From Dehalococcoidia bacterium (GTDB lineage: Bacteria; Chloroflexota; Dehalococcoidia; GIF9; AB-539-J10), in the NCBI GenBank assembly GCA_030612025.1, contig JAUWOR010000010.1, positions 7,109-71,108 on the forward strand: a stretch of 64,000 nucleotides of DNA. Reading direction: 5' to 3'. Below, one piece after another: positions 177-42,469 of the stretch. The notes below the pieces were generated by a model that worked only from the letters and a program-made list of their open reading frames with translations, had not been told where the DNA came from and made no database searches. Numbering within the stretch: position 1 is the stretch's first letter; every line of letters begins with the position of its first letter. The translations under genes were made by a program, and so were the position numbers.

Positions 177-185
177 AAATTTTTG

Positions 186-235
186 TAGTTGCCTGATTTA
201 TCAGGCCCTTCTCGCCCAATAAATTGGGCAACTAC
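186..235 (+). repeat. REP family A element (GTAGTTGCCTGATTTATCAGG...CCCAATAAATTGGGCAACTAC)
   Basis: 50-bp unit with terminal inverted repeats GTAGTTGCC/GGCAACTAC; at least 11 copies in window. Confidence 0.8.
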
Positions 236-1203: not shown

Positions 1204-4200
1204 ATGAGTAAAACAATAAGTTGGCCTGTTAGGGTAACTTACATATTTATTGCCCTGGCATTGGCCTTGAGCCTGGTGTTGGTAGCAATACCAGCTAAGA
1301 CCGACGCTGACCCAGGCCTGACCAAGTGGAGCAAGGTGACCACCCCCAGCGAGGAAGATAAAGTCATCGTGCAGAATGCTGATGTTATCAGCTTCGCTGC
1401 CGGGGCCACCGGTGATGTGATATACGCCGTTCTGGATGGCGTGTACGACTGGGACGGTACAGCCTGGGTTGAAGGCGGCGCTACTGGTAATGTAGAGGAT
1501 GTCCTCGAGGATGGCTTCGGCGACGCCGTATTCAAATCCGAGGACGCCGGTGTGACCTGGGACGACATCACCGATGAGGTACAGGAAGAGGGCATGATGG
1601 CCCCCATGATGGTGGAGGTGGCTCCCGACGATGACGACTTTGCCTTCGTGACCGGCTACGGTGACACAAATGACGATGGTGTCATCGAGCCCAAGGTTGA
1701 TGACGCTACCATGGTAATCGGCTCTGATGACGGCGGCAATGACTTCTCCGACATGGTCTTCACTGCCACTACAGAGCGGATTCTATGTATAGCAGTGGCC
1801 CCTGAGGCAGACGACGCATTCAACGTTGCTGTGGGCACCGACGCTGGTTCACTTTACCGCTATAAAGTCGGCGGGACCTTCGGTGGCGCATGGAAGGACA
1901 CCATCACCTATGATGGTTGGGATACCGGCTCTGCCGGTGCAACCACTGCGGTTGTCGCTGTAGCCTTCTCCCCCAACTTCGCTGGTGATGACACCGTCGT
2001 GGCTATTACCACCGATGGAAACAACACCTACCAGCAATCGGGTATATGGGGAACAACCAAAGCCTGGAATAACATAGCTGGCGATCCATTTCCCTCCAAC
2101 GCAGTCCGGATAATGGACGCCCCACCCTACGTGGGCATCTATAATATCGGTTACCAGGAATGGGATCTCCCGGCAGGTATAGCTATGCCAGAGGACTTCA
2201 CCGGCTATGACTCCGGACTACGACACAACTGGGTCTACCTGAACTACGATGCCGATGACAGTCCCAGTTTTGTTCCGGCAAGCTTCAAGACCGCCTTTGA
2301 TGAGGTCGGCCAGGTATTCAGAATCAAAGGCAGCACAGTAAAGTACGCTGGTATCCGCTGTGAGCCCTGGGATACCTCCACAACCTACCCCTTGATAGCC
2401 AGCATCTCAATGTATGGCGAGATAGAGGATGGTAACCTGATGGTAGGTTTGACCGGTCAAACAGACTGTTGCAAGGGCGTACAGGTTTACCGCACCAGCG
2501 AATGGCCCATAGACTACTGCTGTCCGCAGTGGTCCTCAGCCAAGAAACCACCCACGGGACAGGCAAACTGTTTGGTGAGCTATGTCGCCGGTGGAGACAA
2601 GGCATACGCAGCCACCAGCGAATGCTCCACCACTGGACTCCCGTACGACGAGAGCGCATTCTCCCTGAGCGAGGTAGAGGAAGTGGGCAAGTACTGGAAT
2701 CAGCCTAGTCTGGTTGACACCTTCATAGACTTCCTGTCTGATGTAGCGGTCAATCCTGGCTGTGGCACCATCTACCTCTTCAGCGTCAACGACCACGCCA
2801 GAGACTGTGGCTGCGACAGCGTGTGGAGCAGCACCGATGATGGCGACAGCTACCTCAGGGTATTCTGCAAGTCATTGACAAATGATTTTGGTCTTATCCG
2901 CACCGCTCCCGAGGAGACAGAGGAGGTTCTCACTGTTTACCTGGTTGACCAGGGCACCAAGGTCATTTACTGGAACGATGACAGCGGCCTGACCAACTGG
3001 TCAAATAGGAAAGCCTCTACTCTGGACAATGTCTGGGATCTCGCAGTTGAGAGCGAAGACACCATCTATGCGCTGTCCGCCAACGGCAAGGTAAGCACAT
3101 CCGCCAAGCATGGTGGACCAGGTTCCTGGAGTTCAGCCAAAGATGCCAAAGTCAACGATGGTCACTCCATAGTCTGCCGCGACGGGCATGTTCTGGTCGG
3201 CGGCACGGCTGGCAAGGTCGGTTACTCCGATGATTCTGCGTCCAGCTTCACCAAGCTGGATGACATTGGCGATGGACTTGTCCATTGCGCCTTCGACACT
3301 TACTTCGACGAGAACGACTATGTTTACGCCGCGATAAGCGGAGCCGATAGCGGAGTTTACCGCACCACCATAGCTGATGCCGACTTTGAAGATATGGATG
3401 CATGGACTACCGTCGATTACTTCGGCGTAGTGACCGAGCTCAGTAAGGATGGCAATCCTAAGACTAAAGCCGCCAATGGCGGTGTTCTCTATGCCGTTTA
3501 CTACGATGGCGCTGGCAGTGGTGTAGCTCGACAGCTCAGTCCAGCCGCGGCAACATGCTGTGGCGACTTGAGCTGGGATTACCTCACCGCCAAGCTGGAT
3601 GCAGATGCAGCCTTCACCCTTGAGCCCACTGCGCTCAAGATCTGCGGCTGTCTCACCTCCGCCACCAACAGCAACCTGTGGGCAATCGACAACGACGACT
3701 ACCAGATGTCCGACGGCAAGGATGGCACCCCGTGGGTCTACGAGGACTGCTTCGGCAAATTTGGCGTAGAACTCACTGCTGTTGGCGATGGCGATATGGT
3801 GGCTTCCGACCCCTGTGAATGCGCCAATGAGAAGTTCGTCCTCGAGTGGGAGCGCCTGTGCAACGAGTGTGAATACGATATTGACATCTCCTTGAACAGT
3901 GCTTTCACTCAGATAGTCCTTGACGAAGGGAACATTATGGTCCAGTACCCAAGCTTAGCGGGAACAGTGGCCTATGACCCGCCCAAGAACGCAGAGCCCA
4001 GCGTGGTAATCTGGGAGGGCGCCATAGACTGCAACACCACCTACTACTGGAGAGTGAGAACTCGCTATGCTGAGACTACCGAGATAATCCGGAGCTTCTG
4101 GTCTGACACCTGGAGCTTCACCGTTGAAGCCGGTCCTACTGTGGCCATTAATTTGATAGCTCCGGAGCCCAACCAGCTCAATGTGCCGATAACCAATGTT

Positions 4201-4617: not shown

Positions 4618-4992
4618 TTACACCCTCACCTCAATCCCCTCCCTTCAAGAGAGAGGAAAGGGGACTCCAAAAAGGGGCGGCTAAAAGCCGCCCCTTTTTC
4701 TTTCTCCCTATAATCATAGTGGCGGGGTTCATCCCCGCCATATGGCGTATTATGCCCCTATACCTCGGTCGGGGACAAGCCCCAACCCTACATTTGGTAA
4801 TATAGTCGTAGTGCGACCCTTCAGGGTCGTGCAATTTACCTGGGCACGAGGCTTAAGCCTCGCACTACAAAGTTCTGCCCAATGGCTGGCGCCTAATGAC
4901 TATTTTTGTCATTGCCAGTCGCGCCCTTCTTTGTCATTGTGAGGAGCCTGATTTATCAGGCACAGTCTCGCCCAATAAATTGGGCAACTACA
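4618..4992. repeat. Composite intergenic repeat cluster: family C (4618..4665), family E/F double hairpin GTAGTGGCGGGGTTCATCCCCGCC..GGGGACAAGCCCCAACCCTAC (4717..4791), REP-B (4808..4868), family D half-sites (4906..4945), partial REP-A (4945..4992)
   Basis: Each unit recurs elsewhere in the window; E/F recurs inverted at 40638..40691 and E alone at 5534..5560. Confidence 0.65.
4674..4703 (+). terminator. Rho-independent terminator
   Basis: GGGGCGGC-TAAAA-GCCGCCCC stem-loop followed by TTTTTCTTT directly after stop of the 1204..4617 gene. Confidence 0.75.
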
Positions 4993-5328
4993 TTTTTTAA
5001 TTTGACCCCGCAGCCCAGCTATGTTAGGCTTACAGTCTATATGTCAAAGAACCTTGAGGAAGGCCGCAGGTGGCTAGCTCAAGCTCAAAGGGATTTGGCT
5101 GATGGAGGATAAGGTAGCTAAACAGGTGTTTTAAATATGCAACATCAATCTTGAAAAACGTGGAGAGATTGCTAACCAAATAGAACAATATTGCCGAGAA
5201 ATAGTAAAGGAATTCAATCCGCATCAGGTAATCTTGTTTGGCTCCTTTGCCACTTTATCCCAGAAAAGGCAATTTTTACCATTTACTTTTTGGGGGTGTT
5301 TTCGTTTATAATAGTGGAGGTTAAAAAT

Positions 5329-5610
5329 GTAGTGCCAGGCTTTAGCCTCGTGCAGGATGGTAAATGGAAAAGGGCACGCCCCTGAAGGGTCGCACTACGA
5401 GATTTTATGAGCAAAGCGAAGGAACTCGACGAAGCAATCTCCATGAGTGCTCGGCCACCGAGATTGCCGCGCTTCGCTTGCAATGACAGGTGGGGAAGCT
5501 GACAAATAACTACGGAATGTAGGAGGGAATAATCGTAGTGGCGGAGTTTATCTCCCCGACCCTCACCTAGCCTCTCCCTTGAAGGGAGAGGAACAAGGTG
5601 AGGGTGATAA
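5329..5610. repeat. Intergenic repeat cluster: REP-B (5329..5398), family D half (5461..5500), family E hairpin (5534..5560), family C hairpin (5557..5610)
   Basis: Sequence identity to the other copies listed. Confidence 0.65.
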
Positions 5611-5697
5611 AAAGGATTAAGAAAGTAAGATTTAGCTTCGCTAAATGGATAATAAGGAACCACTTAGGAAAGAAAAATTAAATAGGAGGATTGTTAA

Positions 5698-7385: not shown

Positions 7386-7435
7386 GTAGTTGCCCAATTT
7401 ATTGGGCGACCGTGCCTGATGAATCAGGCAACTAC
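7386..7435 (-). repeat. REP family A element (inverted orientation)
   Basis: GTAGTTGCCCAATTTATTGGGCG...CCTGATGAATCAGGCAACTAC. Confidence 0.8.
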
Positions 7436-7479
7436 GAAATATCTTGGGGAAGCGGCACTACATGATGAGGTTTGAAAAT

Positions 7480-7529
7480 GTAGTTGCCCAATTTATTGGG
7501 CGGCCGTGCCTGATAAATCAGGCAACTAC
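7480..7529 (-). repeat. REP family A element (inverted orientation)
   Basis: Second copy 45 bp from the first, forming an inverted/direct REP pair. Confidence 0.8.
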
Positions 7530-7769: not shown

Positions 7770-8945
7770 ATGAAATTAGCAGTTATTGGACTTGGGCAAT
7801 GTGGCTGTCGGATTGCTGACAATTTCGCCCGGCTCAACATCAAGGCACATGCCGAACGCAAGGTAACCATATCCCCCATCGTTATTGGGGTAAACACGGA
7901 CCAAGCGGACTTAACCGGGCTAAGGTTTATCAAGAAGGATTATATGCACCGCATACTCATCGGCTTGCGCCAGACATTGGGACATGGAGTGGGCAAGATA
8001 AATGAGCTGGGCGCTGAGTTAGCCCGGGAGGATGGCGATAAGGTGATGGATGCCATGAAAACCGAGCCAAGGTTTTATGAGACGCACGCCTTTTTGCTCA
8101 TCGCTGGCGCTGCTGGTGGCACAGGCTCAGGCGGCCTACCAGTAATTGCCAGGATGATTAAGGAGAGATACCTCAACAAGCCAGTTTATGCCCTTATTGT
8201 TCTCCCCTTTGAACATGAGCAATTCAGCGAGGCAAGGAGTGTATACAATAGCGCTACCTGCCTTAAATCTACCTATGACTTAGTGGATGCCATCTTTCTG
8301 GCTGATAACCAGAGATATGTCAGAAAGGATGCCAGCCTGGTTAATAACATGGAAAGGATAAACCGGATGATCGCCGAGCCCTTCTATGACCTGATGTGCG
8401 CTGGCGAGGTAACCAAGCGTAAGTATGTCGGCGCCAGAACGATAGATGCCGGGGATTTGATCGCCTCTCTGGAAGGCTGGACAACCATTGGCATCGGGAG
8501 AACTGAACTCCCCTCCCTTCGCTTTCCCTGGGAGATAAGAAAGAAACATTTCCGCGAGAAGGCTGTGGAAAGCTTCAGAGGGTCGCAGGCCCTGGATGCC
8601 ACCGTATCCGACCTTTCCATTACCTGCAACCCTAAGGATGCTGCCAAGGCTTTGTATATTATGGCTGGCCCAGCTAAAGAAATGAATATGGACATGATCA
8701 AGAGCGTGAGCAATTACATCAGTGAAATTGCCCCCAATGCCGTAATCAGAGGTGGCGATTTCCCCGGAGAAAAGCATTTCATTGATGTCACCTTGATATT
8801 ATCCCAGTTGTCTTTTGTGCCCAAGATAAAAGACTTTTACGAGACGTCCGTCCAATATGGACAGGAACATAAAGGACAGATAGAGGAAACACAGAAGAGA
8901 ATCCAGGCCTTAAGTGACCTAGGCAAGGAATTGCCTAACTTGTAG
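7770..8945 (+). CDS. Tubulin/FtsZ-superfamily GTPase, non-canonical (CetZ/tubulin-like) paralog, 391 aa
   Basis: SD GGAGGA before ATG; N-terminal G-box VIGLGQCGCRIADNF (GQxG as in CetZ/tubulin, not GGGGxN of FtsZ); T2-like NTDQADL; tubulin signature AGAAGGTGSGG; T7-like TIDAGDL; RGGDFPGE near C-terminus; no FtsZ C-terminal FtsA/ZipA-binding peptide. Confidence 0.75.
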   Translation: MKLAVIGLGQCGCRIADNFARLNIKAHAERKVTISPIVIGVNTDQADLTGLRFIKKDYMHRILIGLRQTLGHGVGKINELGAELAREDGDKVMDAMKTEPRFYETHAFLLIAGAAGGTGSGGLPVIARMIKERYLNKPVYALIVLPFEHEQFSEARSVYNSATCLKSTYDLVDAIFLADNQRYVRKDASLVNNMERINRMIAEPFYDLMCAGEVTKRKYVGARTIDAGDLIASLEGWTTIGIGRTELPSLRFPWEIRKKHFREKAVESFRGSQALDATVSDLSITCNPKDAAKALYIMAGPAKEMNMDMIKSVSNYISEIAPNAVIRGGDFPGEKHFIDVTLILSQLSFVPKIKDFYETSVQYGQEHKGQIEETQKRIQALSDLGKELPNL

Positions 8946-8973: not shown

Positions 8974-9024
8974 GTAGTTGCCCAATTTATTTGGGCTACC
9001 GGGCCTGATAAATCAGGCAACTAC
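8974..9024 (-). repeat. REP family A element (inverted orientation)
   Basis: GTAGTTGCCCAATTTATTTGGGCTACCGGGCCTGATAAATCAGGCAACTAC. Confidence 0.8.
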
Positions 9025-11033: not shown

Positions 11034-11085
11034 GTAGTTGCCTGATTTATCAGGCCCTTATCGCCCCATAAATTGGGCAACTACT
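11034..11085 (+). repeat. REP family A element
   Basis: GTAGTTGCCTGATTTATCAGGCCCTTATCGCCCCATAAATTGGGCAACTAC. Confidence 0.8.
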
Positions 11086-11113: not shown

Positions 11114-11383
11114 TTAGAATAGCCTATCACCTTTATTATAAGTATCTTCGGAACGTCTAGCTATCTTACCGATAATCACCAGTCGATCCTTATCAAACAC
11201 AGCGTAAATAATACGCCAATCGCCAACACGAATTCGATAAATAGGCCCCCTGAGCTTTCTTACTCCTAAAGGGCGAGGATTAGCCCCCAGCGCACGAATA
11301 GCGGCAACTATACGCTCAAACTCTACCTTGCCAAGCTTATCTAATTCATGCTGGGCCCTAGGAGTAAGCTCAACCTTGTGCAC
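11114..11383 (-). CDS. Type II toxin, RelE/ParE family
   Basis: 89 aa; PRAQHELDKL...GDWRIIYAVFDKDRLVIIGKIARR pattern typical of RelE/ParE; overlaps upstream antitoxin by 14 nt. Confidence 0.7.
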   Translation of the reverse strand: MHKVELTPRAQHELDKLGKVEFERIVAAIRALGANPRPLGVRKLRGPIYRIRVGDWRIIYAVFDKDRLVIIGKIARRSEDTYNKGDRLF

Positions 11384-11609
11384 ATGCCTTCTTCCGGCTC
11401 AGATACTCTTCCAACTCTATTGCCGAGCCAGCTTGGCTTTGATATCGAGCTAATTCCTCCTCCATATCTTTAATGTCTTCAATATCCTCTCCGTAGACGA
11501 TATCAATAGCCCTCCGAATGAGCTCAGCAATAGAAACATTCTTCTCAAAAGCTAATTTCTTCAGCCCTTGGTGACTCTCCTCACTAATATAAACCATAGT
11601 TTTTTTCAT
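11370..11609 (-). CDS. Antitoxin, ribbon-helix-helix (CopG/ParD-like)
   Basis: 79 aa; MKKTMVYISEESHQGLKKLAFEKNVSIAELIRRAID N-terminal RHH; upstream partner of RelE/ParE toxin. Confidence 0.6.
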   Translation of the reverse strand: MKKTMVYISEESHQGLKKLAFEKNVSIAELIRRAIDIVYGEDIEDIKDMEEELARYQSQAGSAIELEEYLSRKKACAQG

Positions 11610-11678
11610 GCTTAACTCCTATAGCTTAATTATCTTTGCTCACTATGACAGATATATGTCATGATGTCAACCAGCCGG

Positions 11679-12194
11679 CTACTTGAATCTCTTTACCTCA
11701 AAACGATAGAGGCTAACAGGTTCGTCAAAGGATATCCCGGCCTTGAGTCGGCAAATCTCGATCTGCCTCTCAACTGTGTCCACACCCTCCAGGTTAGGCA
11801 GCAAAAGCCCTCGCCGGAAACCACTCTCCACAATCACCCCATACTTTTTCGGGTCAAGTTGACTTACATCGCCTACCGGCTCAGGCTTAGTAAGAATATC
11901 CACGCTATATTCCAGGTCACCCAGCTCGGATGCCGCTATTGGCGGGAAACGAGGGTCTCTGGTAGCCGAGCTAATAGCATTGGTCATAATCTCCTCAGCT
12001 ACACTGGCTTTAGTCGGCTCAAAAGTGCCAATGCAGCCTCTTAACTCGCCTTGCTTGTGAATGGAAACAAAAACGCCCGCTCGTTCTCTCATCTCAGGAG
12101 TCAGTTCTCTCGGCTGAGGTATTTTACCCTCACGGATATAGCTTTCCACCGTTTCCCTAGCTAGTTTCACTATGGGATGAAGTCCCTCTTTCAT
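11679..12194 (-). CDS. AMMECR1 domain protein (AmmeMemoRadiSam system component)
   Basis: 171 aa, [21 protein letters not shown] motif of AMMECR1 family; partner radical SAM gene at 13182..14201. Confidence 0.8.
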
Positions 12195-12335
12195 AAATAC
12201 CTCCCTCTAACTCCCTCCCGCCAGGGGAGGGAGGATTGTAGTATCCTAATATTACCTCATTATTAACCCTCTCCCTTGATGGGAGACAACATTCGCTTAG
12301 TCCTCTCCCTTCGAGGGAGAGGACTAAGGTGCCTT
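12195..12335. repeat. Family C hairpin repeats (three units)
   Basis: CTCCCTCCCGCCAGGGGAGGGAGG, CCTCTCCCTTGATGGGAGA, CCTCTCCCTTCGAGGGAGAGG. Confidence 0.65.
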
Positions 12336-12352
12336 TCCTCCAAATCCTCGTA

Positions 12353-13170
12353 GTAGTTGCCTGATTTATCAGGCTTATCGCCCAATAAATTGGGCAACTA
12401 CATTTTTAAACACCCTCATTTGTTAACACACGGTATTATTCAATATTTCGTAGTTGCCTGATTTATCAGGCCTTTCTCGCCCAATAAATTGGGCAACTAC
12501 AATATCCTTTCCACTAGTGGATTGTTTTGAATATACTCTCGGATCTTTGCCAGCGCTTTATCATCTCTAATCACATGCTCGTAGTAATTTGGTTGCCATA
12601 GCTTAAATCGAACTTGCTTTGTGGTTACCGCTTTCAACCTTCTAACAATCTCAGCTAGCTTAAGTTGGCAGTCTTCCAAAACCAATATTAGATGAATATG
12701 AGAAGGCATTATTTGGTAGTAATCTAATTTTACTCCGCTTATCTTGTAGGGTAATTGTTCGATAAGTTGGGCAACTATTTCCTTGTTTTCGCCCGTCAGA
12801 TAAGGTCTTCGGTAATTAGTGCAAATTGTTATGAAATAAAAGCCGTCTGAGGAGTAATCATAATCTTTTAAGCGTATATTTTTAACCGCTCTCATCCTTA
12901 ACCTTCCATCATTCTGATACAACCTGTAGTTGCCTGATTTATCAGGCCTTTCTCGCCCAATAAATTGGGCAACTACGTTTTTAAACACCCTCATTTGTTA
13001 ACACACGGTATTATTCAATATTTCGTAGTTGCCTGATTTATCAGGCCCTTATCGCCCAATAAATCGCACTACATTTTTAAACACCCTCATTTGTTAACAC
13101 ACGGTATTATTCAATATTTCGTAGTTGCCTGATTTATCAGGCCCTTATCGCCCAATAAATCGCACTACGT
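12353..13170. mobile_element. REP-RAYT-REP unit: RAYT gene flanked by REP-A doublet (12353..12401, 12450..12500) and REP-A triplet (12926..12976, 13025..13072, 13123..13170) in ~98-bp tandem periodicity
   Basis: REP copies separated by identical 48-bp linker ATTTTTAAACACCCTCATTTGTTAACACACGGTATTATTCAATATTTC; encloses IS200-like Y1 transposase gene. Confidence 0.8.
12497..12895 (-). CDS. REP-associated tyrosine transposase (RAYT, IS200/IS605 TnpA-like)
   Basis: HuH motif SHIHLIL and catalytic YYEHVIRD tyrosine; N-terminal YDYSSDGFYFITICT; start likely ATG 12895 (RBS GGAAGG), the longer 12994 start would read through a REP. Confidence 0.8.
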   Translation of the reverse strand: MRAVKNIRLKDYDYSSDGFYFITICTNYRRPYLTGENKEIVAQLIEQLPYKISGVKLDYYQIMPSHIHLILVLEDCQLKLAEIVRRLKAVTTKQVRFKLWQPNYYEHVIRDDKALAKIREYIQNNPLVERIL

Positions 13171-13181
13171 TTTTAAACATC

Positions 13182-14201
13182 CTACTTCAGCCTTGTTCTG
13201 AAATTAAGCTCACTGCCACAAAACTTGCATTTAGAATCATCCAGTCCCACTACCTGAGTATCATAACCAATGCGGCGAATAACTGTCTTGCCACAAGAAT
13301 AGCAAACGGTATTTTCATACTCATGCCCAGGAACATTGCCCAGATAGACAAACTTTAACCCTGCTTTCTTGCCAATTCTGTAAGCCTTCTCCAGAGTGGA
13401 TACCGGGGTGGGTGGCAGATAATTCAAATTACGCATGGGGTAAAAGCGAGTTATATGCCATGGAGTAAGCTCACCTAAGTTATCTCGAATCCAGGTAGCG
13501 ATGCCACTGAGCTGTGCCTCATCATCATTCATAGTGGGAATGACATTGGTTACCACCTCAACCCACATACCCCATTTCTCCTTAGCGCGCTTGGCTACAT
13601 CCAGAATACCACGCCAGTGAGAGATTTTTGAGAGCCGACGATAAAAACCGTCGCTAAAGCCCTTGACATCAACCCTCCAGGCATCGAGGTAAGGACCGAT
13701 AGTATCTAAAGCCTCAGGAGTGATGTAGCCATTGGTAACATAAACGGTATATAGACCATTTTCCTTAGCCAGCTTGGCAGAATCCAAAGTATACTCAAAC
13801 CATACCGTAGGCTCATTATAAGTCCAGGCAATGCCAGCACAATTATACCGTTTAGTTAACTCTATTTCCCTCTCAGGCAATAGTTGCTGTGAAGTATCAG
13901 GAACATCCACACAGGCAATCTCCCAGTTTTGACAGTCCTGGCAGTGGAAGTTGCATCCCCAGGTGCCCAAGGAAAGGGCATAAGTCCCTGGGAAAAAGTG
14001 AAATAAGGGCTTCTTCTCAATATGGTCAGCGGCTACTGAAGAGACTTCAGCATAATTCATGGTATATAAGGTGCCATCCCGGTTAAGGCGCATGCGGCAG
14101 ACACCCATCTTGCTCAGGTTTATAATGCACCTCCATTGGCAAACGTGGCATCTCACCCTGCCACCCGAGAGTTTCTCATAAAGCATCGCTTCTCTTTCCA
14201 T
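13182..14201 (-). CDS. AmmeMemoRadiSam system radical SAM enzyme
   Basis: 339 aa; N-terminal Cys cluster CHVCQWRC...C plus radical SAM CNFHCQDCQN (CxxxCxxC); neighbourhood with AMMECR1 gene. Confidence 0.8.
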   Translation of the reverse strand: MEREAMLYEKLSGGRVRCHVCQWRCIINLSKMGVCRMRLNRDGTLYTMNYAEVSSVAADHIEKKPLFHFFPGTYALSLGTWGCNFHCQDCQNWEIACVDVPDTSQQLLPEREIELTKRYNCAGIAWTYNEPTVWFEYTLDSAKLAKENGLYTVYVTNGYITPEALDTIGPYLDAWRVDVKGFSDGFYRRLSKISHWRGILDVAKRAKEKWGMWVEVVTNVIPTMNDDEAQLSGIATWIRDNLGELTPWHITRFYPMRNLNYLPPTPVSTLEKAYRIGKKAGLKFVYLGNVPGHEYENTVCYSCGKTVIRRIGYDTQVVGLDDSKCKFCGSELNFRTRLK

Positions 14202-14299
14202 TAGGGGCTATTATATCACCGCGGCTTATCTCAATATAATTACAATATATCCGGCAAAAATGACCTCGCTACATCATTGTGATAGGCTGAATTTCCTCT

Positions 14300-14603
14300 C
14301 CCTCGCCTCCCTCTGTCATTGCGAGGAGCAGTCCCCTGCCAAGTAAGGGGAGGGGATGAGCGGGATCCTTTTCAGCGACGAAGCAAACTCGGAGTGGGAT
14401 TCCTCGCTTACGCTCGGAACAAGCTCCGCAATCTCTAAGAATATCCCTCCACCAAGATTACCACACTGCCCCTTCGTTACACTCAGGGCTTCGGCTCACC
14501 GCAGCTAACAAGCGCCACTTGTAGTGCGAGGCTTCCCTTTTACTCCGTAGTGCGAGGCTTTAGCCTCGCGCCAGATAAGCACGACCCTGAAGGGTCGCAC
14601 TAC
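14300..14603. repeat. Family D half-palindrome (14300..14345) and tandem REP-B with internal duplication (14523..14603)
   Basis: CTCTGTCATTGCGAGGAGC...; GTAGTGCGAGGCTTCCC..GTAGTGCGAGGCTTTAGCCTCGCG...GGGTCGCACTAC. Confidence 0.7.
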
Positions 14604-15298: not shown

Positions 15299-16966
15299 TT
15301 AGTCCAGACCAACAATAATTCTCTCCACCTTGGTGATGTCCAAGCTGTTGACCACGCCATCTCCATTGGCATCAGCGCCGGGAGTTTCGGCATCGAGTCC
15401 AACAATAATCCTCTCGACCTTGGTGATGTCAAGGCTATTGACCACGCCATCTCCATTGGCATCGCCAGGCAGGATTGAGGAGACGTGGACTGAATCGCCT
15501 GTCCAGGTTGCCTCTATTTCATTTGCCCCATTATCGCCCAGAAAGCCGTTTTGCAAACCTATGTCACTGCTGTCACCCTCAGCGCCGATAACATGGAAGT
15601 GTAGTTCTGCCAGGGTGCCGGAGCCAGTGACGCCAGCTAACCCTGGGACGTTCTGAACTATGGTGCATGACCCGCCATCTTCCAGATTCCAGATGTCAAC
15701 CGGTATCGCCGTCCCATCTATCTCACCGGCAGTCACATCATCCAGTCGAAGCACCGTGTCGTCGAAGACAACATCGTAGTTAGCAGCATCGAAGTTCTCC
15801 ACCCCATCAATGTTAACCCTGGCAATAAAATCGCTACCAGCGCCTACCTCGGCTGGAGCACTAATGCTCACTGAAGGAGCAACACCGGTGGTCACAGTTA
15901 GAGTTACCGGCACCGTCACTTCTGGCTCATCGGGGTCGTTGCTTAATATTACTATATTGGCAGTGTAAGTGCTGCCGAGGCCAGTGGTATCGAAGGTAAC
16001 CGTTATGTCATCTTCCTCTCCTGGCGGCACCATGCCTGATTTGGGCTCCTCATCCAGCCAGGGGCAGTCCTCGGCTTCTCCTCCCACATACTTGCTCAGC
16101 ACCACATCATCAATAAAGGCTCCCTGACCGCTAGAGCCAGGCATAACATCACTGAAAGTGAACAATATCCACACTTCAGGCTGCCCGCAGACATTCCCCA
16201 AATAGGGAATCTCTGTGAAGTCCAAAGATTTTTCCATCCAGTGCCGGTAATGTCCGGCGATGGTCTTTCCACCGAAGTATTTTCCATCAATTGACGCTGC
16301 CCAGAGGAGGTAATCGCCAGGAATGTTATACGGCTCCACCTGTATTCCGGCCGAGTCCAACCACAAATGGAACCTCAGCTCGGCATCAGTAGCATCAGCT
16401 AGGCTGAAGGGGCCGTACACCATCGCGGAAGACATTCTGTAAGGAAACCAAGCTGGGGGGTCGACCCCATCTGTACCACTCTTGGCGCAGTAGGCACTCC
16501 ATGATCCGTTGTGGGGGTTGTAGCTGTCCTTTCCCCAGTAGGCATCCACCTGCGACTGAGAATACACGTCCCACTTAGACCCTGGAAATACCCCCTCAAA
16601 ATCCTCGGTCATTATGTTCTGCCAGCCACTGCCAAATTTGCCAGTTTCCTCTGGCTCAACCGTCTTGCCCTCTAGCGGAATTTCCAAGACCATGCTACCT
16701 GGCTTCAGGAGCAGGTTCTCAGCCTTCCCTGTGCTAGCCCCACCTGTTGTTTCCGTGTCGCTGAGAGTGTAGTTCAGCTCCGCATTGCCAACATTGCCTA
16801 TATTTAGAGTGTAGTCCTGGGTTGTGTCTGGCGGCAGCGTTTTCTCGAAGCTGGTGGGAGAAACCGTGATGTCAGGCGCGTCAGGCTGTGCGCCGGCTGT
16901 GGTGGCCCAATCCTGGGCATAATTATCCGACCATTGCTCACTCCCTTGGACATAGGACCAGGCCCC
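15299..16966 (-). CDS. C-terminal portion of frameshifted S8 subtilase gene: PKD/CARDB-like beta domains and C-terminal type-I dockerin (two DANGDGVVNSLDITKVERIIVGLD repeats)
   Basis: Shares the WSYVQGSEQWSDNYAQD segment with the upstream repeat unit of ORF 16938..19688; reading frames join at poly-C tract 16963..16966. Confidence 0.65.
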   Translation of the reverse strand, partial: GAWSYVQGSEQWSDNYAQDWATTAGAQPDAPDITVSPTSFEKTLPPDTTQDYTLNIGNVGNAELNYTLSDTETTGGASTGKAENLLLKPGSMVLEIPLEGKTVEPEETGKFGSGWQNIMTEDFEGVFPGSKWDVYSQSQVDAYWGKDSYNPHNGSWSAYCAKSGTDGVDPPAWFPYRMSSAMVYGPFSLADATDAELRFHLWLDSAGIQVEPYNIPGDYLLWAASIDGKYFGGKTIAGHYRHWMEKSLDFTEIPYLGNVCGQPEVWILFTFSDVMPGSSGQGAFIDDVVLSKYVGGEAEDCPWLDEEPKSGMVPPGEEDDITVTFDTTGLGSTYTANIVILSNDPDEPEVTVPVTLTVTTGVAPSVSISAPAEVGAGSDFIARVNIDGVENFDAANYDVVFDDTVLRLDDVTAGEIDGTAIPVDIWNLEDGGSCTIVQNVPGLAGVTGSGTLAELHFHVIGAEGDSSDIGLQNGFLGDNGANEIEATWTGDSVHVSSILPGDANGDGVVNSLDITKVERIIVGLDAETPGADANGDGVVNSLDITKVERIIVGLD

Positions 16967-19688
16967 GGTAGTAATAGGTTGTGCTTGGCACCAGTCCTGT
17001 GTCTGATTTGCCGGTTGCAGTGCCGAAATAAACTTGTGTGCCGTCGTCCCTATTTGCTGGGTAACCTCCTTGTTTTCTCTGTATTTTTGTCTTCTGAGCT
17101 CCGGCACCTTTAGTCCAGGACAAACTTATCTGGGTGGTACTGGCTGTGGTGGCGCTGAAGCTGGTTGGCGCATCGGGTTTGGTCAGGAAGCTTAACTCAG
17201 GGCCGCTGCCTGTGCCAGCACTGTTCTTGGCCTGTGCCCTGAAATAGTACTTGGTCCCTTTGTTAAGGCCAGAAATGTTTTCACTGAAGGACTGTCCGGT
17301 GGTTTTAGTTTCCACACTCCAGCCCGTGTAGGTGTAAGGCCCTCCTTGGGTGGTGCTGTAGCCAAACTGATACTGGCAGACTTCACCACCGTCATCGGTT
17401 ACCGCGCCGTGAAGAGTAGCTGTAGTCTCTTCAACAGAGGTGGCAGCATTTGTGGTTACCGTTGGCGCTCCTATTGATGTTGTGGTAGCCTGGTCTTGGG
17501 CATAGTTATCAGACCATTGTTCGCTTCCCTGGACGTATGACCAGGCTCGGTAATAATAAGTTGTCCCCGGCGTTAGTCCTGTATCAGATTTGCTGGTTCC
17601 TGTTCCGAAGTAAACCTCAGTGCCATCGTTTCTATTCGCTGGGTAGCTACTTTCTTTCCTCTGTATCTTTGTCTTCTGGGCACCAGCTCCCTTAGTCCAG
17701 GACAAATTTATCTGAGTGGTGCTGGCTGTGCTGGCGGTAAAGCTGGTTGGTTCATCAGGTTTGGTCAGGAAGCTTAGCTCAGAGCCACTACTGGTTCCAG
17801 CACTATTCTTGGCCTGTGCTCTGAAGTAATATTTAGTTCCCTTATTAAGGCTTGAAATAGCTTCGCTGAAGGACTGGCCTGTGGTTTTAGTTTCCACACT
17901 CCAGTCAGTGTAGGTGTACGGTCCTCCCTGGGTCGTGCCATAGCCAAAGCGATACTGGCAGGCTTCACCACCATCATTGCTTACCATGCCATTAAGGGTG
18001 GCAGAGTTCTCCTCTACCAAGCTTGCGGCATTGGTAGTCACCGTTAGCGCTGGTGAGGGTGTCGGCAAGTAAAGCCTGCCACTTCCATACAGGTTATCTT
18101 TCCCAGAAGCACCGAGAGCAACGGCATTCGTCTCAAGATAATTCTGTATTTGCTCCGGAGTGTAAGAGGGAAAGCGTTGCTTGACCAGCGCCGCCGCCCC
18201 TGCCCCATAAGGAGCCGAAGCTGACGTGCCATAGAAATTCTCTGCTCCATAGGTGGAGGTGCTCACGCCATCAGGAGCAACCAAATCGGGTTTTGTCCTA
18301 GCGTCCACCGTTGGCCCCTGAGAACTGAATGATTCCAGCGTTGTAGGGTCGTCCCAGAACACAGCTCCCATGGTCATAGCGCTGGGCGAGTCAGCGGGTA
18401 CACACAGGCTGCCAGCCGCAACCTGATATTGTAGATTGTAGCGTGTGCGTGTCAGGTGGAAGTTGACTACTTCCGGTTCACCCCAGGCAGCTATTAGTAT
18501 GTGATAGATTCCTGTGTATGTAGGGGTATACGACAAAAATTCGTACGGGTCGTCATTACCATCTTGTATCCTGCAAGAGCACGCAACTAGAAAAGAGTTG
18601 TTATCAAGCAACAATAAATCATAGTCATTGCCAGAATTGCCCCAGGGATCATCCCATTTGAGGCTAACTACAATGTCATTTCCGCTGTTGGCAGTGATCG
18701 CATTAGACTCATCAAAGGGTGATTGGTTAAATTCGTGGATGTCATCCATATCACTATCTACAAAGTCTCCCTGCCAGTGACGCTGGGCATAGTTCCCCGC
18801 CGCCTGAGACCACAGGATGCAGGCAGCTCTGGCATCATCCACCATCTGACAGAACAGTCCAGTGCCATCCCCTGGCCCTCCTGGGAGCCAATCCATGGAG
18901 CAGGAGATAACATCAACCCCCTGAGCTATAAGCCAGTCAACAGCATTACCCATCTCGACACTACTGTCAAAGTTGGCCAGATAAAACTGGGCGTCGGGAA
19001 CAAGGTCGTACACGATCTCGGCACAGGCAGTGCCGTGTACAGATGTTCCCTCATTTCCATAGCTTGGAGCCCACCAACTTGCAACCGTGGCAGGCAATTC
19101 CGTACCCAAGAGAGAATCATATCCAGAGAAACCACCATCCAGAATGCCGACCTTCACTCCGGTCCCCGTAAAGCCAGCACTATGCCAGTCATCGGCGTTA
19201 ATCAGGCTTACACCCTCACTGATAACTGATGGTATGGGTTTGAAAGGCAAGCGCACCAATTTAACACTAGCATCATCAGCTAATGCCTCAACCTGAGCGA
19301 CGGGTATCCCAACCTGTACCAGATCCTTATAGCTAGTTTCTACATCGGCACCGAGAGCCTCGGCGATACGCATAACTTCATCCTCCTGCCCACCCACAGC
19401 CTCAATAACCACCCTGGTCCAGTCACCTTCCACATCTATGCCAGATTTTTGAGCAAAAGCGCTCAAATCACCTTTTTCGTAAGCCGCAACCAGTTGGTCC
19501 AGCCGCGACCCCAGCTTAGGATGTCCCTTAGTAATCTCTGGGAGGGCATTAAGATTCGATAAGATGTCATCCTCATCATCAGCCGAAGCACTTCCAGTAG
19601 CCGCACCTCCTATAACCGAAAAGGCTAAAGCGAGGCATAAAATGAGGTTTAGAATTCTCGCCGACCACCCGTTCTTCATGTTTAACAT
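16938..19688 (-). CDS. Subtilisin-like S8 serine peptidase with signal peptide and two tandem ~195-aa FN3-like repeat units (N-terminal portion of a disrupted ~1460-aa gene)
   Basis: Signal peptide; S8 catalytic region (HGTACAEIV..., GTSASAPY); tandem units each ending YYFRAQAKNSAGT..SFLTKPD..YYYR; ORF terminates YYYRGLVLCPRE* where repeat unit 1 reads YYYRAWSYVQG. Confidence 0.75.
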   Translation of the reverse strand: MLNMKNGWSARILNLILCLALAFSVIGGAATGSASADDEDDILSNLNALPEITKGHPKLGSRLDQLVAAYEKGDLSAFAQKSGIDVEGDWTRVVIEAVGGQEDEVMRIAEALGADVETSYKDLVQVGIPVAQVEALADDASVKLVRLPFKPIPSVISEGVSLINADDWHSAGFTGTGVKVGILDGGFSGYDSLLGTELPATVASWWAPSYGNEGTSVHGTACAEIVYDLVPDAQFYLANFDSSVEMGNAVDWLIAQGVDVISCSMDWLPGGPGDGTGLFCQMVDDARAACILWSQAAGNYAQRHWQGDFVDSDMDDIHEFNQSPFDESNAITANSGNDIVVSLKWDDPWGNSGNDYDLLLLDNNSFLVACSCRIQDGNDDPYEFLSYTPTYTGIYHILIAAWGEPEVVNFHLTRTRYNLQYQVAAGSLCVPADSPSAMTMGAVFWDDPTTLESFSSQGPTVDARTKPDLVAPDGVSTSTYGAENFYGTSASAPYGAGAAALVKQRFPSYTPEQIQNYLETNAVALGASGKDNLYGSGRLYLPTPSPALTVTTNAASLVEENSATLNGMVSNDGGEACQYRFGYGTTQGGPYTYTDWSVETKTTGQSFSEAISSLNKGTKYYFRAQAKNSAGTSSGSELSFLTKPDEPTSFTASTASTTQINLSWTKGAGAQKTKIQRKESSYPANRNDGTEVYFGTGTSKSDTGLTPGTTYYYRAWSYVQGSEQWSDNYAQDQATTTSIGAPTVTTNAATSVEETTATLHGAVTDDGGEVCQYQFGYSTTQGGPYTYTGWSVETKTTGQSFSENISGLNKGTKYYFRAQAKNSAGTGSGPELSFLTKPDAPTSFSATTASTTQISLSWTKGAGAQKTKIQRKQGGYPANRDDGTQVYFGTATGKSDTGLVPSTTYYYRGLVLCPRE

Positions 19689-23071: not shown

Positions 23072-23152
23072 AAGCTATCTCCTTAACTAACCTCGGTCTA
23101 TTTGATTTTGCCTCAGATTCAAAACTAGATTTGGCTCATCTCCGGATTCTCG

Positions 23153-23230
23153 TAGTGCGACCCTTCAGGGTCGTGCACGAGGCTACCCCGTGTAGTAATC
23201 TTCGCTACTACACGGGGTAGCCTCGCACTA
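23153..23230 (+). repeat. REP family B element with an extra nested inner hairpin
   Basis: GTAGTGCGACCCTTCAGGGTCGTGCACGAGGCTACCCCGTGTAGTAATCTTCGCTACTACACGGGGTAGCCTCGCACTAC. Confidence 0.8.
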
Positions 23231-24481
23231 CATTTTTAAACACCCTCCAACTTTCCTATATGACCGCCGCCAAGTCCATTCTTCTAAAGCTAAAGCACCG
23301 GCTAAAGCCAGTGATGCGGCCAAAGCTGATAACACGGCGATTAAGGCAGGATGTAGCCATACCATCTCAGCCTGAACCACCGGAGCTATCAGTGTTTCTC
23401 GCCAGCGGCTATCAAGCCCGTCTATGTCAAAACCATAAACCTGGGTTAAAGCTCCATCGTAGGTGTCACCTTCCTTGAAGAGGGTTAATAGATTGAGCAT
23501 TTTATTTTCGCCATAATTGCGGAGAAGGTATTCCACCAGGCTATAACTCTGAGCATAGGAGAGATAAGCTTTTTCTGGTTCAGCGGAAAACGGACTGCAC
23601 AAGCTGCGGACAGAAATTAGCTTACCCTCAGAGATAGCCTTGCCCAAGTAGGCTCGGAAATAAGGGTCGAGCTCCCCCTCGTTATACATAGCTAAGCCCT
23701 CATCAAGCCAGGTGGGCAGTTCGCCATAGGGACTGAAAGTTGCCTGGTGAACGACTAAATGCGTCAGCTCGTGAACTAAAGCTTTTTTGCCCCAATCAAG
23801 TTGATTTGGTGAAATGCCGATGGCAATTATGCCAAACTCAGTAAAAGCAACACCCCCGGTCCACTCCCGGGGGAAAATCATGGCTCCTTGCAAGTCTCCG
23901 GCTGAAGCATAGATATATATTCTAATAGGCTTCGAGATTGCTTCGCCACTGTGCGCCTCGCAATGACTGATAGGCTTCAATCTAGCAAGCCCTTGCTCAC
24001 AAGCATCTATTAATTCCTGAGCAAAAGAATCGTCTCCTTCATACCAGAAAAGGGTTAAATCACTCTTATTTAGGCTTTGCCAATCATAGCGGCCATCATC
24101 AAAATGCACTTCGGCTGGAGGAGTTTCAAGCTTATTTCCAGCAGCATCTCGCATCGTCCACCAATATGATATAGCTGCCCCAGGAGGCAAGCTCGATTTT
24201 CTCATATCCCAAACCCAACTAGTTTCTACTCTGGTTGCTGGAGCAAAGTCAGGCCACCCCTCGCTGGTAACCTGGGCGTAATTCATCCTATCCACCTGAT
24301 AATGAAGGCGAGCATCAACAATATCAGCCTCACTCTCAGCTTCGATAGTGAAGACAAGCGCAATGGGAAAATGCACCTCTACGCTGCTATCCAAGACTGC
24401 GATGCCACTATCCGCCTTGACCAGGGAAGGGGTGAATAGTAAGAAAAGAAGTAGAGCTACTAAGCTAATACGCTTAATCAT
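23228..24481 (-). CDS. Secreted/membrane-anchored putative zinc metallopeptidase (HEXXH), 417 aa
   Basis: Signal peptide, HELTHLVVHQ motif, C-terminal TM; start overlaps prfB stop by 4 nt (operonic). Confidence 0.45.
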   Translation of the reverse strand: MIKRISLVALLLFLLFTPSLVKADSGIAVLDSSVEVHFPIALVFTIEAESEADIVDARLHYQVDRMNYAQVTSEGWPDFAPATRVETSWVWDMRKSSLPPGAAISYWWTMRDAAGNKLETPPAEVHFDDGRYDWQSLNKSDLTLFWYEGDDSFAQELIDACEQGLARLKPISHCEAHSGEAISKPIRIYIYASAGDLQGAMIFPREWTGGVAFTEFGIIAIGISPNQLDWGKKALVHELTHLVVHQATFSPYGELPTWLDEGLAMYNEGELDPYFRAYLGKAISEGKLISVRSLCSPFSAEPEKAYLSYAQSYSLVEYLLRNYGENKMLNLLTLFKEGDTYDGALTQVYGFDIDGLDSRWRETLIAPVVQAEMVWLHPALIAVLSALAASLALAGALALEEWTWRRSYRKVGGCLKM

Positions 24482-42403: not shown

Positions 42404-42451
42404 GTAGTGCGACCCTTTAGGGTCGTGCACGAGGCTAAAGCCTCGTGCAAC
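42404..42451 (+). repeat. REP family B element (3' end degenerate)
   Basis: GTAGTGCGACCCTTTAGGGTCGTGCACGAGGCTAAAGCCTCGTGCAAC. Confidence 0.75.
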
Positions 42452-42469
42452 ATTTTTAAACACCCTTAT

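Follow-up and report, generated by a model that had tools for sequence, protein, structure and literature searches.

The window, a 64-kb stretch of the Dehalococcoidia contig JAUWOR010000010.1 to which all window-scale counts refer, has a REP-associated tyrosine transposase (RAYT) gene lodged between two host genes, with repetitive extragenic palindromes (REPs) on both sides. The host gene upstream encodes the AmmeMemoRadiSam radical SAM enzyme (13182..14201, minus strand; TIGR04337 292.3 bits, cutoff 220). The one downstream encodes AMMECR1, the AmmeMemoRadiSam system protein A (11679..12194, minus strand; TIGR04335 145.6 bits, cutoff 99; Pfam AMMECR1). Both exceed the curated cutoffs for the AmmeMemoRadiSam system and have the coordinates given by an earlier note on this DNA, which had held that the cassette parts AMMECR1 from its radical SAM partner. 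The spacer between them is 988 bp long and holds one open reading frame (ORF), on the same strand as both neighbours. Five near-palindromic repeats of 48-51 nt bracket this ORF, two on one side and three on the other, in one common orientation. The locus is a RAYT/REPtron of an already known kind. It is very probably a REPtron made up of an intact, selected class-2 HUH-Y1 RAYT and its cognate repeats, with a strain-specific array and a cassette history that is decoupled from the flanks in the window lineage. The claim of the earlier note that a RAYT flanked by its own REP arrays has been inserted between these two genes is supported by family profiles and by empty sites in relatives.

The RAYT gene (12497..12895, minus strand) encodes a protein of 132 aa with a Pfam Y1_Tnp match (E 1.7e-12). 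The mechanical ORF is longer (12497-12994, 165 aa). Since its first 33 codons run through a repeat, and all orthologues have 132-133 aa and the N-terminus MRA(V/I)KN, the gene is placed at 12497-12895. A leader of 30 nt (12896..12925, minus strand) separates the start codon from the nearest upstream repeat; it is 94% identical in L213, one of the related loci that are named here by L numbers. The leader contains GGAAGG, likely a ribosome-binding site, ahead of the ATG. The stop codon TAG (12497-12499) falls within the GTAG foot of the downstream repeat, and the same overlap is found in L001, L003 and L213. Most family members end in ...IEFxQFY and have 138-139 aa; the clade at this locus ends in ...ERIL, its TAG being part of the GTAG of the doublet downstream. 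The ratio of non-synonymous to synonymous divergence (dN/dS) is 0.09-0.15 against six more distant orthologues; therefore, the gene is maintained by selection. The window has one RAYT gene.

The HUH motif of the protein is H66-I-H68 (HIHLIL), and the catalytic tyrosine is placed by alignment at Y121 in REYIQNNP. This gives the motif Y---NP, the class-2 signature of Quentin et al. 2018 (PMC6006769). The residues H66 and H68, the segment W100-Q-P-N-Y-Y-E-H107, R110, Y121, N125 and P126 are invariant across 25 homologues. Five of them (W100, Q101, E106, H107 and R110) align with W94, Q95, E100, H101 and R104 of the E. coli TnpArep structure 4er8, which contact the GTAG foot (PMC6006769), and Y121 and N125 align with its catalytic Y115 and N119. 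The earlier note had singled out HIHLIL and YYEHVIRD as the motifs of the enzyme. The first is the HUH motif; the second aligns with the GTAG-contacting WQPRFWEHAIR segment of E. coli TnpArep and is the segment that binds the foot, whereas the catalytic tyrosine lies elsewhere.

A single-sequence search of the PDB ranks E. coli TnpArep (4er8) first by a small margin. With a profile of the 25 homologues the match to 4er8 is 50.4 bits (E 1.9e-12) and that to ISDra2 TnpA is 32.1 bits (E 8.7e-7). Among the NCBIfam models REP_Tyr_transpos (68.8 bits) ranks over IS200 (36 bits), and both scores are below the curated cutoffs (80 and 55, respectively). The IS200 score and the Y---NP motif do not fit a class-1 IS200/IS605 transposase. 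The AlphaFold2 model (pLDDT 79, pTM 0.73) has HUH-Y1 transposases for all of its top 30 structure matches. It superposes best on 4er8_A, with a template modelling (TM) score of 0.72 and a root-mean-square deviation (rmsd) of 2.5 A, against a TM of ~0.62 and an rmsd of 6-10 A for IS608 and ISDra2. The earlier assignment to the REP-associated class of Y1/HUH transposases agrees with these profiles and with the Y---NP motif. The earlier note had also named the finding that would overturn it, a classical IS200 TnpA carrying its own ends; the profiles favour TnpArep instead, and one and the same hairpin element lies on both sides of the gene and, without it, elsewhere between genes.

A REP-A copy consists of two 22-nt hairpin units, GTAGTTGCCCAATTTATTGGGC and GTAGTTGCCTGATTTATCAGGC, set 5-7 nt apart in inverted orientation as a doublet, and each unit is built of a GTAGTT foot, a 6-bp stem and a TTTA loop. 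The arms of the doublet are 82% complementary, so that two inverted REPs can fold as one unit, as in the REP doublets forming hairpins known as REPINs. Searches of the window match each 22-nt arm 9-10 times, where shuffled sequence predicts 0.00, and the flank GTTTAAAAAY (GTTTAAAAAYGTAG) 5' of the foot 10 times, where 0.02 are expected. As single-stranded DNA the intact copies fold at -14.5 to -15.6 kcal/mol (z -5.4 to -6.3). Covariation was assessed on 37 distinct units from many genomes, most of them partners free of the search-pattern constraint. In this set 97.7% of the stem cells pair and double-sided changes occur at five of the six pairs; when the partner is slid by 1-3 columns as a control, only 18-47% pair. 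Therefore, the small hairpin is what is conserved in structure, and the foot and the loop are what is conserved in sequence. The two halves have unlike stems in 97/97 doublets from all loci compared (0/97 homotypic), with at least 15 stem combinations. Since the halves never share a stem, the long hairpin is always imperfect while each half is perfect.

Mapping with blastn-short gives 11 REP-A doublets in the window against 0 expected by chance. Apart from the five at the RAYT gene, these are at 185..235, at 4946..4991 (one foot degenerate; also found by repeat search), at 7386..7529 (a pair at 7386-7435 and 7480-7529), at 8974..9024 and at 11034..11084. Between the two members of the pair is a linker of 44 nt, similar at its ends to the 48-nt linker described below. 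The REP-A copies are outside ORFs of at least 120 aa, except for REP3, which overlaps the RAYT ORF only where this is spuriously extended at the N-terminus, and for one copy in a repeat-built mechanical ORF. It is plausible that the RAYT at this locus is the source of the scattered copies.

The five doublets at the RAYT gene are numbered along the window. REP1 (12353..12401; 49 nt with a 5-nt spacer) is joined by a 48-nt linker (12402..12449) to REP2 (12450..12500, 51 nt), which overlaps the RAYT stop codon. On the other side of the gene, REP3 (12926..12976, 51 nt) is immediately upstream of the leader and is followed by a second linker (12977..13024), REP4 (13025..13072, 48 nt), a third linker (13073..13120) and REP5 (13121..13168). 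REP4 has one arm, GTAGTGCGATTTATTGGGC on the RAYT-sense strand, that is 3 nt shorter and has a REP-B-like foot and a broken hairpin. REP5 has the same chimeric form and is the left junction of the cassette with the host backbone. Next to it, directly after the radical SAM stop codon, is GATGTTTAAAAAC (13169..13181, minus strand), the conserved 5' flank of REP-A and REP-B units, which is also found in L125, L128 and L213. The joined repeats are spaced 97, 99 and 96 bp from start to start and the three linkers are 100% identical. The earlier description of two plus three REP-A copies with a 48-bp linker and a period of ~98 bp is thus accurate, with the addition that each copy is a doublet.

The 48-nt linker is absent from all other loci compared. 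RAYT genes flanked by cognate GTAG-tagged palindromes are found in L001, L003, L108, L213 and L243 as well. In L213, where the RAYT is 98% identical, there is one degenerate doublet and a half-unit upstream, a single doublet downstream, and no linker. Since the linker is missing from L213 and from the other loci, the 96-99-bp array is, on sequence comparison, a recent strain-specific tandem amplification of the doublet and the 48-nt linker on both sides of the RAYT gene. The amplification postdates the chimeric REP5, because REP4 repeats the same chimera. Dimers of GTAG REPs that are reiterated in tandem together with flanking DNA have been reported by Di Nocera et al. 2013 (PMC3733652). The array does not qualify as CRISPR-like or integron-attC-like, since its 'spacers' do not differ from one another, cas and intI genes are absent and each unit is a GTAG-tagged palindrome.

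There are several minor resemblances between the repeats and the gene. The last 18 nt at the linker 3' ends (ATGAGGGTGTTTAAAAAT; 12402-12419, 12977-12994 and 13073-13090) match the first 18 nt of the RAYT gene at 15/18 positions. The linker was considered as a decayed RAYT leader plus the first six codons, which also make 48 nt, and this was not adopted, because the similarity is confined to these last 18 nt, with the first 30 no closer than background (10/30). The sequence encoding RAYT codons 40-47 (IVAQLIEQ; window 12752-12779) matches a REP-A unit at 17/22 nt. Both resemblances may have arisen by chance, the sequence being rich in A/T, or may be left over from a fusion of gene and repeat. 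L243 has a different upstream REP array (3826-3990) with a 26-nt linker in which the final 17 nt of the RAYT gene are duplicated, which suggests cycles of duplication and deletion between the flanking doublets.

The window also has a second family, REP-B, whose units are GTAGTG followed by CGAGGCTTTAGCCTCG and GTAGTG followed by CGACCCTTTAGGGTCG. The geometry of foot, stem and TTTA loop and the flank GTTTAAAAAT are common to REP-A. There are seven REP-B doublets, out to 42 kb (477-536, 1017-1064, 4808-4868, 5329-5398, 14547-14603, 23152-23241 and 42404-42461). Taking both families together, 14/18 copies are outside ORFs of at least 120 aa. The other 4/18 overlap three mechanical ORFs, two of which are largely repeat-built and the third of which (5283-5663) is doubtful. 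Since there is no second RAYT in the window, this RAYT may serve both REP-A and REP-B.

A third palindrome family (CCTCTCCC-N4-GGGAGAGG and variants) is found at 12207-12328 and 14290-14350 in the window and in the gaps of L126, L129-L135, L143, L163 and others. These palindromes crowd the spacer between the radical SAM gene and AMMECR1 in the window and in most relatives. One member is the perfect 15-bp hairpin CTTAGTCCTCTCCCT/AGGGAGAGGACTAAG (12296..12328), which is the right edge of the block held in common with L213 and is 98% identical there. Just past this hairpin the identity between the window and L213 falls from 95% to 76%.

The insertion site was compared among relatives of the radical SAM protein at 80 metagenome loci (80-97% identity). 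Eight of these end at or just after the radical SAM gene and the other 72 extend far enough to be informative. AMMECR1 directly follows the radical SAM gene in 69/72, most commonly with a gap of 14-22 bp; therefore, the cassette is an insertion, and the question raised earlier of whether the two genes are normally adjacent is answered positively. A RAYT is in the spacer only in L133, L167 and L175. The clearest empty site is in L126, which is 95-97% identical to the window on both sides and has 47 unrelated bases in place of the whole cassette block (12287..13178, minus strand, 892 bp). The block is also missing from L125, L128 and L129. The spacer elsewhere contains REP-A remnants (L127, L142/144/151 and L201), REP-B (L125 and L128), other hairpins or a small unrelated ORF, so it is a hot spot of turnover. 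In L143, L146, L161, L163, L172, L183 and L186 a spacer of 465-673 bp has the small ORF in the place of the RAYT gene, and by eye this resembles a DUF559-type endonuclease. A solo REP-A in L127 (2585-2640) replaces the end of the radical SAM gene and supplies its stop codon, the TAG being part of the GTAG of the REP. In L209 the radical SAM gene is closely preceded by a second RAYT (1982-2488; 168 aa), which is unrelated to the first (25% identity) and has GTAGGGCG-type REPs of its own; therefore, two different REPtrons flank one gene there.

The RAYT orthologues show the same address. At 75% identity or more, all 11 contexts that could be placed (the window, L001/2, L003-5, L108/205, L167/206, L133, L175, L207/8, L209/10, L213 and L243) lie between the same two genes. 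More distant RAYT relatives, with 73%, 58% (Poribacteria) and 53% (Anaerolineae) identity, are at other places. No RAYT relative above 40% identity was found in 72,556 plasmid or 50,697 phage records; since only relatives below 40% turned up there, no transfer vector is identified.

These observations bear on whether the cassette is an autonomous insertion sequence (IS) of the IS200/IS605 type, with the flanking hairpins as its ends, which transposes itself and has repeatedly struck this site. An IS would be expected at many sites, but the orthologues are all at one; there is one copy in 64 kb, and the same doublets are on both sides of the gene and solo in intergenic DNA. The unlike halves of every doublet do recall the left and right ends of an IS, and the patchy presence in close relatives and the discordant cassette history described below would suit one. 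The protein is short, lacks a C-terminal extension and has fold matches to IS608 and ISDra2 that are almost as significant as those to TnpArep; its tyrosine motif, however, is of class 2 and not the Y...Q type of class 1, its IS200 score is under the cutoff, and the plasmid and phage records hold no close relatives. This explanation is therefore very improbable.

The hairpins could also be a host device that uncouples the expression of the radical SAM gene and AMMECR1, as an mRNA-stabilising or attenuating stem-loop, with the transposase gene as an incidental or inactive passenger. A scan of 11600-14400 for promoters and terminators did not rise above the shuffled background and no T-tracts were seen after the REP stems, although the hairpins are strong and all three genes are co-directional; no promoter is therefore claimed for the linker. 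Other hairpin families do occupy the same spacer in related loci, but most relatives have the 14-22-bp spacer and no hairpin. The enzyme is under purifying selection with its catalytic residues all intact, and the array is strain-specific, both of which speak against a passenger beside a host device. A regulatory origin is hardly credible. An Rfam search of the whole window returned no family at the gathering threshold.

The history of the cassette differs from that of its flanks. Loci with a RAYT fall in at least six separate places on the radical SAM protein tree. In the group L108/L175/L207/L209, the proportion of synonymous differences (pS) of the RAYT equals that of the flanks (e.g. 0.38 vs 0.42 and 0.40); therefore, the cassette has co-diverged with its hosts there and the silent sites of the RAYT are not unusually slow. 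Such host-congruent divergence is not seen for the window, L213 and L001 lineages. The window RAYT has a pS of 0.26-0.37 against L001, L003, L108 and L175, with flanks at 0.60-0.73. Against L213, whose cassette is 98-100% identical, the synonymous divergence (dS) of the RAYT is 0.012 and that of the flanks is 0.73-0.76. Sliding identity between these two is ~85% in both host genes and 95-100% over 12300-12950, including the non-coding leader and the hairpin at 12296-12328. In contrast, the window and L125, L126 and L128 have host genes that are 94-100% identical, with the cassette block absent, and 5/5 of the closest flank relatives lack the RAYT gene. Because the divergence of cassette and flanks is discordant, the history of the cassette in the window lineage differs from that of the DNA around it and is much younger. 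L189, which by its flanks is closest to L213, breaks off at the radical SAM stop codon and gives no information on this point.

The alternative is vertical inheritance only, with many losses; the RAYT would then be little diverged because it evolves slowly, and L213 would have been misassembled as a chimera. All orthologues with at least 75% identity are at one site, the direct-repeat doublets on both sides of the RAYT would permit clean deletion, and the REP-A remnants in the RAYT-less loci L127, L142/144/151 and L201 would be what such losses leave behind. Bertels et al. 2017 (PMC5581495) describe slow evolution of Group 4/5 RAYTs and trees congruent with the host. The agreement of RAYT and flank divergence in L108/L175/L207/L209 also suits this alternative, but the same pairs serve as a control which shows that the synonymous sites of the RAYT are not intrinsically slow. 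The low RAYT pS against L001, L003, L108 and L175 is independent of L213. With L213 itself, the leader and the hairpin beyond the repeat are non-coding and also 94-98% identical. The repeats that could serve as chimera joints are only about 21-22 nt long and all five close flank relatives lack the gene. Strictly vertical descent is accordingly unlikely as the whole account.

The junctions of the cassette are in repeats. On the left, the window equals L125 through GTAGTGCGA, a REP-B foot, and then continues as REP-A in the window and as REP-B in L125. The right junction is at a CCTCTCCC-type hairpin. We infer that the cassette most likely reached the window lineage through recombination with the repeats as anchors, or was lost there and then acquired again. 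A wider and tentative reading, which we would not put at even chances, is that the RAYT with its REPs is an exchangeable unit that re-seeds RAYT-less lineages at one fixed site via recombination in the repeats, with the junction at 13121-13168 as the scar, and that the core also travels between distant hosts.

Several observations weigh against the REPtron interpretation or against parts of it. The RAYT score of 68.8 bits is below the curated cutoff of 80 of NCBIfam NF047646 (REP-associated tyrosine transposase, equivalog); therefore, the protein is called only a class-2 relative and not an orthologue or equivalog of enterobacterial or pseudomonad RAYTs. The Foldseek E-values are nearly tied, with ISDra2 marginally ahead of 4er8. 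The 11 REP-A copies are confined to the first 13.2 kb of the window, and the remaining 50.8 kb has none. Close relatives without a RAYT (e.g. L125) still bear REP-A copies, so this RAYT need not be their source. The strongest discordance comes from one 3.5-kb metagenome contig (L213), which in principle may be a chimeric assembly joined in short repeats. Such a chimera is unlikely, since no possible joint is longer than 21-22 nt and the same trend is seen when L213 is set aside. Finally, the chimeric REP5 junction requires a 3-nt deletion, so it is no clean crossover. L213 has a different 19-nt variant at the same place, and it is conceivable at most that REP4 and REP5 are clean crossovers between REP-B and REP-A.

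Among known systems, the E. coli REPtron, YafM with REPs in bacterial interspersed mosaic elements (BIMEs) (PDB 4ER8; Messing 2012 PMC3479197; Corneloup 2021 PMC8266576), is alike in the HUH motif and the tyrosine in Y---NP, in the W, Q, E, H and R foot-contact residues, in being the best profile match and superposition, and in a gene flanked by its own GTAG-tagged hairpins, which are also scattered extragenically. It differs in that the identity is only 24% and that the protein has 165 aa against 132 aa here, where the C-terminal extension is lacking. Its stems are 35-nt and bulged, whereas those here are perfect 6-bp stems with a TTTA loop in tight heterotypic doublets.

By descriptive features the RAYT is closest to TnpA(REP) subclass 2.4 (Quentin et al. 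2018, PMC6006769) and RAYT Group 4 (Bertels et al. 2017, PMC5581495), a likeness drawn from their descriptions only. These are alike in having no extension of the core domain, in 'double foot' repeats (5' GTAG, 3' CTAC), in a patchy distribution over many phyla that includes a Chloroflexi class, and in a repeat that intrudes into the gene, which here is the stop codon within a REP. The distance from HUH to tyrosine is ~55 aa here against a median of 88 in subclass 2.4, and here no REP lies between the two motifs.

The REPINs of Pseudomonas fluorescens SBW25 (Bertels & Rainey 2011, PMC3116915) are likewise units of two inverted REPs that are extragenic and form tandem clusters, with a RAYT that is apparently single-copy (here one in the 64-kb window). 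The doublets here are much more compact (48-51 nt with a 5-7-nt spacer), their halves are always unlike, and their core is common to many phyla and not lineage-specific. The BIMEs of enterobacteria have regular REP arrays with fixed linkers and tandem amplification together with flanking DNA; in contrast, the unit here is the whole doublet in one orientation plus a 48-nt linker absent from the other loci compared, and the array surrounds the transposase gene. IS200/IS605 elements (IS608 and ISDra2) have the HUH-Y1 fold, hairpin substrates with a 5' guide tetranucleotide and an expected single-strand chemistry in common with this system. They differ in the class of the tyrosine motif, and the system here has one copy in the window, a fixed site, ends that are dispersed independently of the gene and no TnpB partner.

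By analogy with TnpArep of E. coli, Stenotrophomonas and Marinomonas, the enzyme would bind the folded hairpin unit on single-stranded DNA through the foot and the loop. GTAG would act as the guide for choosing a nearby CT or CA, one of which the CTAC of the partner offers. Y121 would then form a 5'-phosphotyrosyl link and the strand would be transferred or rejoined. The expected outcome is that doublets are duplicated or moved in trans, with the enzyme gene not mobilising itself; nothing here suggests that the RAYT gene moves itself within a genome. Several related Dehalococcoidia lineages have the cassette at this address, and in some of these it co-diverges with the flanks. In the window lineage it may have been exchanged, with the chimeric REP5 as the left junction and the CCTCTCCC hairpin as the right junction.

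REP sequences are usually viewed as lineage-specific. The exact 22-nt REP-A unit pattern was scanned in species-representative genomes and was found in at least 119 stretches. The labels among the matches listed are from more than 12 phyla and include Dehalococcoidia/Chloroflexi, Anaerolineae, Poribacteria, Elusimicrobia, Zixibacteria, Nitrospirae, Nitrospinota, Omnitrophota, Ignavibacteria, WOR-3, Clostridia, delta- and other Proteobacteria, Planctomycetia, Saccharibacteria and Ratteibacteria. Complete Poribacteria chromosomes among these matches have the pattern at several sites each, and a RAYT of this family adjoins it in only three of the stretches listed. The pattern is also in 29 IMG/VR contigs, none of which has the RAYT gene.

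Several of the IMG/VR contigs (L221 at 43, 2051, 3271, 5468 and 6365; L215, L222, L223, L229, L236, L238 and L240) have single REP-A hairpins on one strand only. Each of these hairpins immediately precedes a ribosome-binding site, in one gene after another. L221 encodes portal, major head and tail proteins and is a true fragment of a tailed phage. One hairpin-bearing IMG/VR contig comes from the same sample as L213 (3300009529).

It has been proposed that RAYT/REPIN systems, alone among the classes of bacterial mobile DNA, are maintained purely by vertical descent. To our knowledge, they have been studied almost only in Proteobacteria. The locus is a compact and well-resolved RAYT example from an uncultured Dehalococcoidia, with a cassette genealogy that is much shallower than those of both neighbouring genes. 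It goes beyond the textbook picture in the series of filled, empty and remnant loci at one address, in the discordance between cassette and flanks, in the strictly heterotypic doublets and in a hairpin core that is found across phyla and in phage. If the discordance holds, a REPIN population without its enzyme can be rescued and the repeats can be used as recombination handles. If the cassette is in fact an exchangeable unit, this would contradict the picture of RAYT/REPIN systems as lineage-specific and essentially strictly vertical in inheritance. The rules of the hairpin (a GTAGTT foot, a free 6-bp stem, a TTTA loop and unlike halves) define concrete substrates with which this unstudied RAYT subfamily can be examined biochemically.

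The neighbourhood has other features of note. Protein B (Memo) of the AmmeMemoRadiSam system had no domain match in 20 window ORFs of 89-556 aa or among the called neighbours of related loci. Immediately downstream of AMMECR1, 11114-11609 encodes an 89-aa toxin of the ParE type (Pfam ParE_toxin E 2.9e-10) and, upstream of it and overlapping it, a 79-aa ORF that is the probable antitoxin. The pair is also in L209, and other relatives have an MgsA-type AAA gene at that place. The window encodes a 602-aa predicted secreted protein at 15299-17107 with a C-terminal pair of dockerin-like repeats (DANGDGVVNSLDITKVERIIVGLD), as read from the ORF translation alone. CetZ proteins are usually described as archaeal. 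At 7770-8945 the window has a 391-aa protein with Tubulin/FtsZ GTPase and CetZ C-terminal domains, which is also present in the bacterial relatives L001 and L003.

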